A DNA stretch of 64,000 bases from Escherichia coli (GTDB lineage Bacteria; Pseudomonadota; Gammaproteobacteria; Enterobacterales; Enterobacteriaceae). The notes beneath the pieces are model-generated. The model had not been told where the DNA came from and made no database searches. It saw nothing but the letters and a program-made list of their open reading frames with translations. A program made the translations under genes and the position numbers. The stretch is taken from assembly GCF_041886205.1 (NCBI RefSeq), contig NZ_CP169029.1. One strand, given 5' to 3'. Shown in pieces: positions 811-7,893 of the stretch (position 1 is the stretch's first letter; each line of letters opens with the position of its first letter).

Positions 811-2460
811 TTAACCGCGCCACGCTTTATAGCGGTTAATCAGACCATTGGTCGAGCTATCGTGGCTGCTGATTTCTTTATCATCTTTCAGCTCTGGCAG
901 AATACGGTTCGCCAGCTGTTTACCCAGTTCCACGCCCCACTGGTCGAAGGTGAAGATGTTCAGGATCACGCCCTGAGTAAAGATTTTGTGCTCATACAGC
1001 GCAATCAACGCACCCAGGCTGAACGGAGTGATTTCGCGCAGCAGGATAGAGTTGGTCGGGCGGTTACCTTCGAACACTTTGAACGGCACCACGTAGTCAA
1101 GCGTTGCCGGATCTTTACCCTGATCGCGATATTCCTGCTCAACCACTTCGCGGGATTTACCAAACGCCAGCGCTTCGGTCTGAGCAAAGAAGTTAGACAG
1201 CAGTTTCTGGTGATGATCAGAGAGCGGGTTATGGGTGATAGCCGGAGCGATGAAATCGCACGGTACCATTTTGGTTCCCTGGTGGATCAGCTGGTAGAAC
1301 GCGTGCTGACCGTTAGTGCCTGGTTCACCCCAGATAATCGGGCCAGTCTGGTAATCCACAACGTTACCGTTACGGTCAACATACTTACCGTTGGACTCCA
1401 TATTGCCCTGCTGGAAGTACGCCGCGAAACGGTGCATATACTGGTCATACGGCAGAATCGCTTCAGTTTCCGCACCAAAGAAATTGTTGTACCAGATGCC
1501 AATCAGCGCCAGCAGGACAGGCAGGTTTTTCTCGGCAGGCGTGGTGGAGAAATGCTTGTCCATCGCGTGTGCGCCAGAAAGCAGTTCAACGAAGTTATCA
1601 AAGCCGATGGAGAGAACAATCGACAGGCCAATCGCTGACCACAAAGAGCAACGGCCGCCAACCCAGTCCCAGAACTCGAACATGTTGGCAGTATCAATAC
1701 CAAACTCGCCAACGGCTTTGGCATTGGTGGAAAGCGCCGCAAAGTGTTTTGCAACGTGTTTTTCATCACCTGCCGCTTTCAGGAACCAGTCACGCGCGCT
1801 ATGGGCGTTGGTCATGGTTTCCTGAGTGGTGAAGGTTTTAGATGCTACCAGGAACAGCGTGGTTTCCGGGTTTACTTTTTTCAGCACTTCCGCGATGTGA
1901 GTCCCATCGACGTTAGAAACAAAGTGCATGTTCAGGTGGTTTTTGTACGGACGCAGAGCTTCGGTCACCATGTATGGGCCGAGGTCAGAACCGCCGATCC
2001 CGATGTTCACTACGTCAGTGATTGCTTTGCCGGTATAACCCTTCCACTCACCGGAAATAATCGCTTCTGAGAAGGTTTTCATCTTCTCCAGCACCGCGTT
2101 GACTTCCGGCATTACGTCTTTGCCATCAACCAGAATCGGGGTATTGCTACGGTTACGCAGCGCTACGTGCAGCACGGCACGGTTTTCAGTGCGGTTGATC
2201 TTCTCGCCAGAGAACATCGACTTAATCGCGCCCGCCAGATCGCACTCTTTCGCCAGATCTTGTAATTTCGCCAGCGTCTCTTCAGTGATGCGGTTTTTGG
2301 AGTAATCCACCAGCATCTGATCGTCGAATGTTGCGGAGAACTTAGAAAAACGATCGCCGTCTTTAGCAAAAAGATCGGCGATCGTAACGTCTTTCATTTC
2401 ATCGAAGTGTTTCTGTAGTGCCTGCCAGGCAGCGGTCTGCGTTGGATTGATGTTTTTCAT
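811..2460 (-). CDS. pgi: Glucose-6-phosphate isomerase
   Basis: 549-aa product starting [19 protein letters not shown]..., full-length recognisable Pgi; ATG at 2458-2460 (the ORF track extends 2 codons upstream to a TTG). Confidence 0.97.
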
Positions 2461-2643
2461 TAGCAATACTCTTCTGATTTTGAGAATTGTGACTTTGGAA
2501 GATTGTAGCGCCAGTCACAGAAAAATGTGATGGTTTTAGTGCCGTTAGCGTAATGTTGAGTGTAAACCCTTAGCGCAGTGAAGCATTTATTAGCTGAACT
2601 ACTGATCGCCAGGAGTGGATGAAAAATCCGCATGACCCCATCG

Positions 2644-2672: not shown

Positions 2673-2699
2673 ATAAATGTACTACCTGCGCTAGCGCAG

Positions 2700-2984
2700 G
2701 CCAGAAGAGGCGCGTTGCCCAAGTAACGGTGTTGGAGGAGCCAGTCCTGTGATAACACCTGAGGGGGTGCATCGCCGAGGTGATTGAACGGCTGGCCACG
2801 TTCATCATCGGCTACAGGGGCTGAATCCCCTGGGTTGTCACCAGAAGCGTTCGCAGTCGGGCGTTTCGCAAGTGGTGGAGCACTTCTGGGTGAAAATAGT
2901 AGCGAAGTATCGCTCTGCGCCCACCCGTCTTCCGCTCTTCCCTTGTGCCAAGGCTGAAAATGGATCCCCTGACACGAGGTAGTT
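2700..2984 (+). promoter_or_regulatory. Lysine riboswitch (L-box) in the lysC 5' leader
   Basis: Long structured GC-rich leader starting AGAGGCGCGTTGCCCAAGTAACGGTGTTGGAGGAGCCAG... directly upstream of lysC; matches the known position and approximate sequence of the E. coli lysC L-box (recalled, not folded). Confidence 0.7.
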
Positions 2985-4334
2985 ATGTCTGAAATTGTTG
3001 TCTCCAAATTTGGCGGTACCAGCGTAGCTGATTTTGACGCCATGAACCGCAGCGCTGATATTGTGCTTTCTGATGCCAACGTGCGTTTAGTAGTCCTCTC
3101 GGCTTCTGCTGGTATCACTAATCTGCTGGTCGCTTTAGCGGAAGGGCTGGAACCTGGCGAGCGATTCGAAAAACTCGACGCAATCCGCAATATCCAGTTT
3201 GCCATTCTGGAACGTCTGCGTTACCCGAACGTTATCCGTGAAGAGATTGAACGTCTGCTGGAGAACATTACTGTTCTGGCAGAAGCGGCGGCGCTGGCAA
3301 CGTCTCCGGCGCTGACAGATGAGCTGGTCAGCCACGGCGAGCTGATGTCGACCCTGCTGTTTGTCGAAATCCTGCGCGAACGCGATGTTCAGGCACAGTG
3401 GTTTGATGTACGTAAAGTGATGCGTACCAACGACCGATTTGGTCGTGCAGAGCCAGATGTAGCCGCGCTGGCGGAACTGGCCGCGCTGCAGCTGCTCCCA
3501 CGCCTCAATGAAGGCTTAGTGATCACCCAGGGATTTATCGGTAGCGAAAATAAAGGTCGTACAACGACGCTTGGCCGTGGAGGCAGCGATTATACGGCAG
3601 CCTTGCTGGCGGAGGCTTTACACGCATCTCGTGTTGATATCTGGACCGACGTCCCGGGCATCTACACCACCGATCCACGCGTGGTTTCCGCAGCAAAACG
3701 CATTGATGAAATCGCGTTTGCCGAAGCGGCAGAGATGGCAACTTTTGGTGCAAAAGTACTGCATCCGGCAACGTTGCTACCCGCAGTACGCAGCGATATC
3801 CCGGTCTTTGTCGGCTCCAGCAAAGACCCACGCGCAGGTGGTACGCTGGTGTGCAATAAAACTGAAAATCCGCCGCTGTTCCGCGCGCTGGCGCTTCGTC
3901 GCAATCAGACTCTGCTCACTTTGCACAGCCTGAATATGCTGCATTCTCGCGGCTTCCTCGCGGAAGTTTTCGGCATCCTCGCGCGGCATAACATTTCGGT
4001 AGACTTAATCACCACGTCAGAAGTGAGCGTGGCATTAACCCTTGATACCACCGGTTCAACCTCCACTGGCGATACGTTGCTGACGCAATCTCTGCTGATG
4101 GAGCTTTCCGCACTGTGCCGGGTGGAGGTGGAAGAAGGTCTGGCGCTGGTCGCGTTGATTGGCAATGACCTGTCAAAAGCCTGCGGCGTTGGCAAAGAGG
4201 TATTCGGCGTACTGGAACCGTTCAACATTCGCATGATTTGTTATGGCGCATCCAGCCATAACCTGTGCTTCCTGGTGCCCGGCGAAGATGCCGAGCAGGT
4301 GGTGCAGAAGCTGCATTTTAATTTGTTTGAGTAA
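2985..4334 (+). CDS. lysC: Lysine-sensitive aspartokinase III
   Basis: 449-aa ORF MSEIVVSKFGGTSVADFDAMNRSADIVLSD..., ATG at 2985. Confidence 0.97.
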   Translation: MSEIVVSKFGGTSVADFDAMNRSADIVLSDANVRLVVLSASAGITNLLVALAEGLEPGERFEKLDAIRNIQFAILERLRYPNVIREEIERLLENITVLAEAAALATSPALTDELVSHGELMSTLLFVEILRERDVQAQWFDVRKVMRTNDRFGRAEPDVAALAELAALQLLPRLNEGLVITQGFIGSENKGRTTTLGRGGSDYTAALLAEALHASRVDIWTDVPGIYTTDPRVVSAAKRIDEIAFAEAAEMATFGAKVLHPATLLPAVRSDIPVFVGSSKDPRAGGTLVCNKTENPPLFRALALRRNQTLLTLHSLNMLHSRGFLAEVFGILARHNISVDLITTSEVSVALTLDTTGSTSTGDTLLTQSLLMELSALCRVEVEEGLALVALIGNDLSKACGVGKEVFGVLEPFNIRMICYGASSHNLCFLVPGEDAEQVVQKLHFNLFE

Positions 4335-4478
4335 TATTTCCCTACTGGCGTATAACGCTCACCAATTGTTATACGCCATCCTCACTGAAAATATAGATTA
4401 AATAATATCTGAAAAATAAAATCACTCCTGTAGAACAGTATTATAATCACCGAAAAATATTATTTAACAGGAGTGTTA

Positions 4479-5405
4479 ATGGCTACTTTAATGGAAAAAG
4501 ATGCACTTTTAAATGGCACCAGTCAGTGCATCGCGTTTTTATCAAATATCGTTGATAATTGCTCAGTTTCGTCACGTCAGGATTCAGGCGATGATCTCAC
4601 ACGATTAGTCAGCTATCGCGATTATCTTTACTCTACCCCCGCTGAACTTGTTGATTTTACACAGGGAAAGAGTCACCTTCAGCAGATTAGAACTCAATAT
4701 CAGCATGAATTCAACAATACTACGCATTCAGAAAATAAAGCATCTTTTGATTCTATTTGGCAGCGTCTGACAAATCATGAAGTCACACCGCAACAGCATC
4801 CCATTGGTTTTGTTTTAGGTGGGCAACCCGGAGCAGGTAAATCATCTCTGATTGAATTAGCCAAAAGAGAGACAAAAGATAATATAATGATTATTAACGG
4901 TGATGATTTTCGATTTCTACACCCTGATTTTAATTATATCTACCAAAATTATGGGGATGATTTTGTTACCCATACAGCGAAATTTTCCGGCGAAACGGTC
5001 GAACGTGCAATTGAGAGAGCGATAGTCAGTAAACTCAACATTGTTGTCGAAGGAACATTTCGTAATGCCGCTACGCCGTTACAAACATTAAAAAAACTCA
5101 AAGATGCAGGCTACCAAACAGAAGTCATGATAAAAACAACCTCAGCGGCATTAAGCTGGGAAAGCACCAATGAACGGTATAATAAGGACAAAGAGGCGGG
5201 AAATATTGCCCGAAAAGTGGATAAAAACCACCATGATATCGTCACCGGTTTGCTGGCAGAAAATGCCCGCAAGGTGTTTGCTTCGAACCTGTCAGATAAG
5301 TTTGCGGTGTATTCGCGTGAGAAGATGATATTTAGTTCACAAGCGGCAACGAATGACGATATTGCAACGCTTATACAGAATGAAATCAGCGGGAATACAC
5401 AATAA
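4479..5405 (+). CDS. Zeta-toxin-family P-loop kinase with ~100-aa N-terminal extension (EzeT-like single-chain toxin-antitoxin candidate)
   Basis: ATG at 4479 preceded by AGGAG (4468-4472); the ORF track starts 2 codons earlier at a GTG (4473). Walker A GGQPGAGKS at 4818-4844 and GDDFR at 4899-4913, as in zeta/PezT UNAG kinases; gene is visibly AT-rich compared with its neighbours. Confidence 0.8.
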   Translation: MATLMEKDALLNGTSQCIAFLSNIVDNCSVSSRQDSGDDLTRLVSYRDYLYSTPAELVDFTQGKSHLQQIRTQYQHEFNNTTHSENKASFDSIWQRLTNHEVTPQQHPIGFVLGGQPGAGKSSLIELAKRETKDNIMIINGDDFRFLHPDFNYIYQNYGDDFVTHTAKFSGETVERAIERAIVSKLNIVVEGTFRNAATPLQTLKKLKDAGYQTEVMIKTTSAALSWESTNERYNKDKEAGNIARKVDKNHHDIVTGLLAENARKVFASNLSDKFAVYSREKMIFSSQAATNDDIATLIQNEISGNTQ

Positions 5406-5440
5406 TAATAAGAGCTGATGGCGTGAAATAACGCCGGGCA

Positions 5441-6241
5441 TCACGCCCGGCGCATTACCGTCTGGTACATTAAGCTATCCAGTTCCTTAACGTCCCCTTC
5501 TCTGCTATCCGGTAACAGCGGTGGAATTTCCCCACGCGCCAGTTCCGCACGAATAAACGCATGTAACAATGGACGGCGCGGACCATATTCCGCTTCTCCT
5601 GCGCGCTGTTTACGTCCCAGTAATTCGTCTATTTCTGCACGTAACGGCGCATCAAGTTCACTTCCCGCCAGTAGCTCAGCAAAGCGCATTGGCGGCACGC
5701 CTTTTCCCGCTTCGACCCAGCGCACGGCCAGCAGCGGACGCAGCACGTAAAAGTATTTTTTCAGTCGAACTTCATCGCCCTGCAAATATCCGCGGAAGTT
5801 TTTCTGCGCCATCGAATAGTAATGCCAGCGCGCACGCAGCGGAGAAAACCACATTGGGACCATTGCCTTAAGCGCCGTTATCGTTTCTTCATCTTGTTGA
5901 TAGACCACCGGAGAATCCAGCCATTCTATCAGCGTCGGGTTCGCGCCTTTCAATAATCCCAGCGCCTTACGCCACTCCCAACCGGAAACATCTAACTCGT
6001 CGTCGATGGGCAGCTCGATAACATCGCGCGGCGGCTCCACCCGCAGATACCATTCCAGCGGGTGAACATACAAAAACCGTACATCGTAGTCGCTGTCGGG
6101 CGAGGCAAACCCCCAGCCGCGGCTCCCGGATTCACAGGCATACAGCACTTTCACGCCGTAGCGCCGTTCTATTTCTTTTAACTGCTGCGATACCCGTTCG
6201 CGCATCGCAGCACTGACTCCATTTAATGGCATGTTACTCAC
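5441..6241 (-). CDS. Pol-beta-superfamily nucleotidyltransferase-fold protein of unknown specificity
   Basis: 266-aa ORF from a GTG at 6241 that overlaps the upstream SPFH stop; alternative in-frame ATG at 6232. Contains GS-x10-DYDV (coding 6083-6127), the classic hG[GS]...DhDh NTase signature, plus downstream acidic residues (IELPIDDELD). Confidence 0.75.
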   Translation of the reverse strand: MSNMPLNGVSAAMRERVSQQLKEIERRYGVKVLYACESGSRGWGFASPDSDYDVRFLYVHPLEWYLRVEPPRDVIELPIDDELDVSGWEWRKALGLLKGANPTLIEWLDSPVVYQQDEETITALKAMVPMWFSPLRARWHYYSMAQKNFRGYLQGDEVRLKKYFYVLRPLLAVRWVEAGKGVPPMRFAELLAGSELDAPLRAEIDELLGRKQRAGEAEYGPRRPLLHAFIRAELARGEIPPLLPDSREGDVKELDSLMYQTVMRRA

Positions 6242-7365
6242 CCTTTGATATTAACCAACCCATGCAGAACCTGATCCAGACCGCCAAATACAGAGATGTT
6301 ATCGATCCGCTCAGCCACTCTCTCCAGCGTTTCTAGCTCTTTTAAACGCAACGCTACCGGATTGTTCTCCATGACTTTGGCGGTGTTCAGTAACGAGCGC
6401 GTCGCTGCCGTTTCTTCACGTCGGCGAATCACATTCGCCTGCGCAGATTTCTCCGCCTCAACCAGCTGCGCAAGGATATTTTTCATATCGCCAGGCAGGA
6501 CGATATCTTTCACCCCTAATGAAGCAATCTCCATACCAAATGGCAACATGCGCGATTTCACCTGTTCGCTGACAACGTCATCAATGACCTGTTTATCTTC
6601 CAGCAGTTCATCCAGCGTACGAGTACCTACCGCTTCACGCAGGGCAAATTGCAATTCCCGATACAAATGATCAATCGGCTTCGTTAACTGACTAAATGCT
6701 AATAACACGTCGCTGTAGCGCCAGTTAGCCGCGAGGTTAATCCGCAGATTGACCTTATCTTTCGTTAAGATTTCTTGCCCGCTGACTTCCAGTACCTGCA
6801 AGCGGGTGTCAACCACTTCAGTTTCAACCAGATGGTTAATTTTCCAGTACGCGGTAAGCCCCGGCGGTAACAGCGCCTGCGTTTCACCATCGATTTTCAG
6901 CACGCCTACATGCCAGGCCGGAACCTGCACCGTCAGTATCGCATCGCGGCCTTTAACAACTCCTTTGCGCCGTGGCTGTAATACCGCATTCATCACCTCC
7001 GTTTGTACCGGGACTTGCTGCGTATTCATCCGCACCAGCGTCAAATCATCCTCTACACGCCAGTACAAACGACGCGTTGATGGCAGCAGGATCTCCAGCA
7101 AAATACCGTCCATATACAACGCCCCGGCTTCAGTCTCCGACAAGTCTGCCACCAGGCAATATTTCTCCACCCAATCAGGCTGAAAGCGGCGCAAATAGTC
7201 CGCCAGCACGTCGGGAACTTCGCTACCATCCAGCGTAATCAGCAACACTTCCGGGGTATTAAACCAGGGTAAAAAATGCTCGCCTGCATGTAGCACTTTG
7301 TAGTAATCGCCGTTTCTGGAGAGTAATGCCAGCTGATCTTTTCTTACGCTTATTTTTTTAATCAT
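6238..7365 (-). CDS. SPFH/band-7 (stomatin/prohibitin-like) domain protein with no predicted membrane anchor and a ~135-aa N-terminal domain of unknown function
   Basis: 375-aa ORF, ATG at 7363-7365 with AGGAA 7 nt upstream; SPFH hallmarks (PPGLTAYWK...TKDKVNLRINLAANWRY...GMEIASLGVKDIVLPGDMK) and C-terminal coiled-coil-like AEKSAQANVIRRREE...; no hydrophobic stretch of TM length seen by eye. Confidence 0.8.
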   Translation of the reverse strand: MIKKISVRKDQLALLSRNGDYYKVLHAGEHFLPWFNTPEVLLITLDGSEVPDVLADYLRRFQPDWVEKYCLVADLSETEAGALYMDGILLEILLPSTRRLYWRVEDDLTLVRMNTQQVPVQTEVMNAVLQPRRKGVVKGRDAILTVQVPAWHVGVLKIDGETQALLPPGLTAYWKINHLVETEVVDTRLQVLEVSGQEILTKDKVNLRINLAANWRYSDVLLAFSQLTKPIDHLYRELQFALREAVGTRTLDELLEDKQVIDDVVSEQVKSRMLPFGMEIASLGVKDIVLPGDMKNILAQLVEAEKSAQANVIRRREETAATRSLLNTAKVMENNPVALRLKELETLERVAERIDNISVFGGLDQVLHGLVNIKG

Positions 7366-7893
7366 TATCTATTCCTTGCTTAACAGCCGTCGCGGAAGCA
7401 GACACGAAGCGACAGGGGAATTCCCTTTTGCCTGTTACCCGGCGTCTTTATCGGCGACGTTATCGGGGATCGCTGACTGCGCAATCCCTCATTTTTTATT
7501 TAATAAGTTACAACCAGTATTCATTTCAGGAATGAATGTGGGAATCGAACCCATAATTGGCGTCAAAGGCTGACGGAACACGCCCGGAAAACAGCCTGAC
7601 CGTTCCTGGTGTGCCGACGGGGTTTAACCCCCTTTGAAATTCAGTTTCAACGCATAGGAGTTATTGCGAGAATCGTGCCAGAAGTAAAAAAAACACCTAA
7701 TCAAATGAAAAATAAAGATTTAATAAATTATTGTTTTTTATTGGGGGAAAACTTTTCGCTAAATTTGTATCTGTATTTATCATCAATTATCAAGAAAGAT
7801 AAATATTTCAGAAGAGAATAAAGGAATATTATCAGTTCTGCTTGCAAATGAATTCCCGTACACTGAATCCATCGGCTCACTGAGGGCACCATC

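Follow-up and report, generated by a model that had tools for sequence, protein, structure and literature searches.

Comparative identification of an ezeT allele, encoding a putative single-polypeptide toxin-antitoxin module, next to lysC in Escherichia coli

The gene that directly follows lysC in the 64,000-nucleotide stretch of Escherichia coli chromosome analysed here (the window; contig NZ_CP169029.1) is, judged by its sequence and its locus, an intact allele of ezeT itself and not merely an EzeT-like gene, and it very probably encodes a chromosomal single-polypeptide type II toxin-antitoxin module whose kinase is held off by its own N-terminal domain. The encoded protein aligns without gaps to WP_000212693.1, the experimentally validated EzeT according to a 2023 review (PMC10532202), with 299 of 308 residues identical (97%), both proteins being 308 residues long. 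WP_000212693.1 is carried by E. coli W and by one O111:H11 strain, directly downstream of lysC and with the same neighbours as in the window, and lysC is described as adjoining the EzeT gene in phylogroup B1 strains (PMC10532202); in the window, ezeT shares this lysC-adjacent chromosomal locus, starting 145 nt past the lysC stop codon. A preliminary description, made from the raw sequence alone, had proposed an EzeT-like single-chain zeta toxin, which was correct on the architecture and understated the identity. Its implication of something new did not stand: ezeT is a published gene, first characterised before this analysis, and no claim of discovery is warranted.

The identity of the gene, its locus, the domain architecture, the conservation of catalytic residues and the fold prediction come from this analysis, and kinase activity, lysis and cis-inhibition come from the literature on the reference allele, the functional claims of the primary study (Rocker & Meinhart 2015, Mol Microbiol 97:589) being taken via three reviews. 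According to these reviews (PMC4803016; PMC4826407; PMC10532202), full-length EzeT is non-toxic, EzeTΔN83 causes loss of viability, permeabilisation, lysis and accumulation of UNAG-3P, EzeT residues 1-82 supplied from a second plasmid neutralise ΔN83 in trans, and toxicity of the kinase is seen only below about 30 °C. In the proposed mechanism, the C-terminal kinase (residues ~84-308) would use ATP to phosphorylate UDP-N-acetylglucosamine to UNAG-3P, which, as in the zeta family, would block the first committed step of peptidoglycan synthesis and lead to lysis. The N-terminal three-helix bundle (residues 1-83) would fold back on the kinase and inhibit it in cis, as epsilon and PezA do in trans. 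Because the bundle would keep the kinase off, the full-length protein would be harmless, and toxicity would arise only after removal or displacement of this domain. The gene would be expressed from its own weak promoter, consisting of a -10 element only, with a strong ribosome site, and would lie in an AT-rich cassette, acquired horizontally, whose insertion point directly follows the stop codon of lysC. The window is consistent with each structural element of the published EzeT account.

Table 1. Features at and around ezeT; positions refer to the window unless a locus label is given
Feature	Position	Strand	Basis or remark
pgi	811-2466	-	
Lysine riboswitch	2697-2893		Rfam search
lysC	2985-4334	+	
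Strain-variable segment lysC-yjbD, ~3.4 kb	4335-7765		Holds ezeT, RlaP and slipin genes; K-12 lacks the segment
Perfect -10 hexamer TATAAT	4442-4447	+	Sequence; AAATCA at 17-bp spacing instead of a -35
Shine-Dalgarno AGGAG	4469-4473	+	5 nt before ATG 4479
ezeT coding sequence, 308 codons and stop	4479-5405	+	ORF scan, RefSeq annotation, protein alignment
Putative N-terminal cis-antitoxin domain, residues 1-83	4479-4727	+	Predicted three-helix bundle, helices 4-27, 30-52, 60-79
Zeta-type UDP-N-acetylglucosamine kinase domain, residues 84-308	4728-5402	+	
Walker A / P-loop GGQPGAGKS (K121), residues 114-122	4818-4844	+	Sequence; invariant in 33 homologs
D142 codon (first D of GDDFR)	4902-4904	+	Aligns with catalytic Asp, PezT D66 and zeta D67; invariant among homologs
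RlaP-family nucleotidyltransferase gene	5441-6241	-	Pfam RlaP PF10127, E 3.8e-95; convergent to ezeT
Slipin/SPFH gene, 375 aa	6238-7365	-	Pfam Band_7, E 1.1e-23
yjbD, rluF, pepE, yjbB, ORF read as metH			Downstream, after the two convergent genes
Upstream ORFs of kinase-only loci (outside the window)	L009:3753-3998; L010:3738-3998; L011:1277-1504; L012:1283-1504; L013:1252-1491; L014:1265-1504		Neisseria/Neisseriaceae and metagenomes; L009 is N. wadsworthii CP059565.1

The coding sequence is one uninterrupted frame. In strain 6EVA, whose DNA is identical, RefSeq annotates the corresponding 927-nt coding sequence as WP_000212702.1, a "zeta toxin family protein" of 308 aa. The GTG at 4473 from which the preliminary description had read the gene lies 6 nt off this RefSeq start and overlaps the AGGAG ribosome site, which that description had itself pointed out and which is indeed present at the spacing given in Table 1. 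The start is ATG 4479, and the protein therefore has 308 and not 310 residues. A sequence scan turned up no ATG in frame between codons 6 and 136, and none of ATG, GTG or TTG in frame between codons 61 and 112. Within the region scanned, a kinase-only product would thus have no codon from which to start, and a free kinase made in this way was rejected. Likewise rejected was a separate (or non-coding) N-terminal region, which had been named beforehand as grounds for abandoning the assignment: the N-terminal domain and the kinase share one continuous frame, annotated as such by RefSeq in all inspected genomes.

The kinase half carries the zeta/PezT hallmarks exactly where they had been reported from the sequence, that is, GGQPGAGKS at the Walker A position and GDDFR at residues 141-145 (nt 4899-4913). 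Pfam Zeta_toxin (PF06414) matches residues 101-282 with an E-value of 2.2e-40, the best solved structures by sequence are PezT (2p5t_B, E 5e-33) and zeta (1gvn_B, E 5e-27), all of these scores lying well beyond what chance would give, and the modelled protein has the zeta-toxin fold. Residues K121, D142, E191, T193, R195, R233 and R245 align with PezT K45, D66, E115, T117, R119, R157 and R170, a set that includes the P-loop lysine and the catalytic aspartate of the PezT/zeta structures, and all of them are invariant in an alignment of 33 homologs. Alignment to EzeT and to PezT/zeta had been proposed at the outset as a check, with loss of catalytic residues counting against the assignment; all were kept. 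Against the NCBIfam PezT equivalog NF041574, EzeT scores 130.9 bits, below the curated cut-off of 470 bits, and by this profile comparison it is related to streptococcal PezT and is not its equivalog.

The N-terminal extension, put at ~100 aa in the preliminary description, is real and about 83-100 aa long. It has no match in Pfam and none by sequence in PDB, and neither its 100 N-terminal residues nor the antitoxin-family profile showed similarity to epsilon or PezA when searched against PDB sequences; an "epsilon-like" assignment by sequence homology was rejected after these searches, and fold similarity only remains. In the AF2 model, three long, confident helices lead into a linker at residues ~80-90 that is modelled with low confidence (block pLDDT 61) and falls at the published ΔN83 boundary; the kinase fold comes next. 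A fold comparison returned PezA as the best natural three-helix-bundle match to this domain. Three-helix bundles are common, generic folds, and sequence similarity to PezA or epsilon is absent; the fold match is therefore consistent with, and not proof of, the same ATP-site-blocking geometry, and it hints that the bundle might share a PezA-type mode of inhibition. The absence of a separate antitoxin gene upstream, as had been stated earlier, was likewise found: only lysC lies upstream, and the 144-nt gap after it contains no ORF of at least 40 aa.

The two domains evolve at different rates. In five comparisons, the identities of the antitoxin and kinase domains were 90 and 100%, 77 and 94%, 78 and 92%, 50 and 62%, and 28 and 39%, respectively; the antitoxin domain thus diverges faster in every comparison made, and the far better conservation of the kinase indicates purifying selection on the enzyme. 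Of the nine substitutions that separate the window allele from WP_000212693.1, eight lie in the antitoxin domain (positions 14, 25, 33, 39, 41, 65, 66 and 70) and one lies in the kinase domain (N235 in the window allele, S235 in WP_000212693.1). Even with eight antitoxin-domain substitutions, the window allele would be expected to behave like reference EzeT. A search of complete E. coli genomes found ezeT in 1,433 of 5,426, single-copy and always chromosomal. Most copies are ~98% identical to the window at the DNA level, with only 11 genomes at 99% or above and ~1,370 at 95-99%, and WP_000212702.1 is the rarer allele. Because this uncommon allele differs mainly in the inhibitory domain, it offers a natural variant with which to ask how firmly the cis-antitoxin restrains the kinase.

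Upstream of the gene there is a perfect -10 hexamer with no -35 hexamer at the expected spacing (Table 1), and a consensus promoter scan that requires both hexamers accordingly finds no promoter there; this absence fits a -10-only promoter and does not prove one. The TATAAT is likely to be the weak ezeT promoter described in the literature, which is given as -10 only, with no -35, in the account of PMC4803016. An inverted repeat rich in GC, CGCCGGGC-atcac-GCCCGGCG, lies where the convergent ezeT and RlaP genes meet (positions 5425-5452) and extends over the stop codon of RlaP. It lacks a T-run, and the scan did not call it as a terminator; it may stop transcription in both directions.

The window is homologous to ezeT-negative genomes (K-12, Nissle, ST131) up to position 4334, where the lysC stop codon has its final base, and again from near 7765; the lysC-yjbD gap of K-12 is only 252 bp. 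The GC content is 40.3% in ezeT and 30.6% in the 144-nt upstream gap, as against 51.9% in the window and 54.5% in lysC, which bears out the AT-richness noted for the gene and its upstream region, and the horizontal acquisition suggested on that basis fits the position of ezeT in a ~3.4-kb strain-variable segment absent from K-12. In strain A10 (locus L006, NZ_CP028764.1, 1-2483), prophage genes (tail fibre, DUF4376) stand in the place of ezeT, directly beside the RlaP gene. Other mobile DNA thus also uses the lysC-proximal side of this slot, and the lysC-yjbD slot is, on these genome comparisons, an integration hot-spot.

The remainder of the segment has some features of its own. The RlaP and slipin genes overlap by 4 nt, and the slipin protein has an N-terminal extension of ~145 aa. 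The gap between the slipin gene and yjbD is long (7366-7893, 528 nt), and its left ~400 nt, which belong to the variable segment, include palindromic stretches rich in GC and, at 7540-7552 on the minus strand, a motif resembling a tRNA T-arm, GGGAATCGAACCC; ARAGORN and Rfam find no tRNA or other RNA at this position. The gap may be what is left of an attachment site.

The shared segment raises the question of whether ezeT belongs to a three-gene module with the RlaP and slipin genes, for example a phage-defence island, with these partners taking part in its regulation alongside its own N-terminal domain. Together the three genes make up one strain-variable segment at an integration hot-spot where prophage tail genes take the place of ezeT in A10, and they occur together in about 1,424 of the 1,433 ezeT-positive genomes. 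However, the RlaP-slipin pair is found in 1,631 of the 5,426 E. coli genomes, that is, without ezeT in roughly 200 of them, and the full-length homolog of Pseudocitrobacter resides at another locus with neither neighbour. In addition, ezeT is convergent to the pair and differs from it in composition (40% GC versus 55% and 50% for the pair), neither the RlaP nor the slipin protein is matched by a defence model in PADLOC, the PADLOC match of ezeT is only marginal (candidate model PDC-M04B, E 0.0029), and the behaviour published for EzeT was obtained with this one gene alone, according to PMC4803016. A joint system was rejected in view of the partnerless loci, the convergent order and the distinct GC content, and such a module is highly improbable; given this composition and order, the partnerless loci and the lack of a defence match, ezeT is therefore treated as a self-contained cassette in a hot-spot.

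A rival view is that ezeT has become a relic in the window strain, where its kinase would be decaying or permanently self-inhibited and would no longer have a function. This view would agree with the non-toxicity of full-length EzeT and the inactivity of the freed kinase at 37 °C (PMC4803016), with the lack of any activating trigger described in the EzeT literature, and with gene damage elsewhere. IS1 splits ezeT in the pigeon strains PT62 and LP5-1 (NZ_CP090448.1 / NZ_CP101866.1), the flanks being otherwise 100% identical to the window, and the O145:H28 strain RM12581 (L004:3501-4429) has an allele of 89% identity that is annotated as frameshifted, inspection having turned up no other frameshift. 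Some lineages have therefore lost or inactivated the gene. The frame is, however, intact in the window, every record listed among the 1,433 genomes carries the annotation "zeta toxin family protein" at a typical identity of ~98%, and every catalytic residue is kept in a kinase that stays more conserved than the antitoxin domain (100 versus 90%, 94 versus 77%, 62 versus 50%). Decay into a relic is thus scarcely probable. A further reading takes EzeT for a module of conditional suicide or phage defence, its fast-evolving N-terminal domain being a sensor that infection or cold stress would displace or degrade. This reading is compatible with the data because the antitoxin domain diverges faster and because the slot holds prophage genes elsewhere; it finds no positive support beyond the marginal PDC-M04B match in PADLOC and is unlikely. 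No observation made in this analysis contradicts the favoured reading of ezeT as an intact self-inhibited toxin-antitoxin module.

Relatives that span the full length and share the N-terminal domain come from other Escherichia (88-92% identity) and Pseudocitrobacter (59%), and one more is the metagenomic protein P0111 (36%). A second group from Neisseria and Neisseriaceae, at 42-47% identity, begins at about EzeT residue 85 and has no such domain. At all five kinase-only loci that were opened, an unannotated ORF of 73-86 aa lies 0-10 nt upstream of the kinase gene, overlapping it by 4 nt in three of the five, and relaxase, resolvase or ParA genes are present at two. The proteins encoded by these ORFs have no Pfam match and are homologous to EzeT residues 1-80 (pairwise E-value 9e-8). 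In the family alignment, M5, K7, D8, L10, A19, R47, L50 and Y51 are invariant, with shared MxTLMxKDAL and R..LY..PE..DF blocks. A two-gene form of the pair therefore still exists, as predicted by the gene-fusion origin that the discoverers of EzeT proposed (PMC4826407). These free-standing homologs independently support, at the level of sequence, a role of EzeT residues 1-83 as the antitoxin; they supply direct comparative evidence for a gene-fusion origin, and they define an antitoxin family for which Pfam has no model. The Neisseria-type kinases (P0015-P0116) also bear a charged C-terminal tail of ~70-130 aa that is absent from EzeT, and one subgroup ends in ...(D/E)I(D/E)R.

In the metagenomic P0111 (307 aa, Logan assembly), the N-terminus shares 71% identity with the free-standing ORF of locus L013 and the kinase shares 63% with the kinase of that locus (P0110); identity to EzeT is 36% over the whole protein and 39% over the kinase domain. 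P0111 seems to be a second fusion, independent of the EzeT lineage, that arose through loss of the intergenic stop codon, although it rests on a 1.15-kb contig in which an assembly or frameshift artefact is possible.

Among known systems, the window gene agrees with EzeT (WP_000212693.1) in length, locus and two-domain architecture, and its -10-only promoter matches the published description. Like EzeT, it joins an N-terminal antitoxin and a zeta kinase in one polypeptide and has no separate antitoxin gene. The canonical epsilon/zeta and PezAT systems, in contrast, have a separate antitoxin gene upstream, in place of which ezeT has a 144-nt gap with no ORF of at least 40 aa, and the EzeT N-terminal domain shows no sequence homology to epsilon (PF08998) or PezA. 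In PezAT of S. pneumoniae (2p5t), PezA is a separate protein that also contains an HTH repressor domain, whereas EzeT has its inhibitor fused N-terminally, without an HTH and without similarity to PezA in sequence. The epsilon/zeta system of pSM19035 (1gvn) is a plasmid addiction operon of three genes, omega-epsilon-zeta, in which epsilon is a free antitoxin; EzeT is encoded by a single chromosomal gene. The ng_epsilon1/ng_zeta1 pair of N. gonorrhoeae (6epg) and AvrRxo1 (4z8q) are much more distant, with differing substrates or phosphorylation sites and unrelated antitoxins (PMC10532202). EzeT was also compared with the two-gene pairs of Neisseria and Neisseriaceae: their kinase is 42-47% identical and their upstream ORF is homologous to EzeT residues 1-80, but the two genes are separate and translationally coupled, the kinase has an extra C-terminal tail and the contexts are often plasmid-like, whereas in EzeT the two parts are fused.
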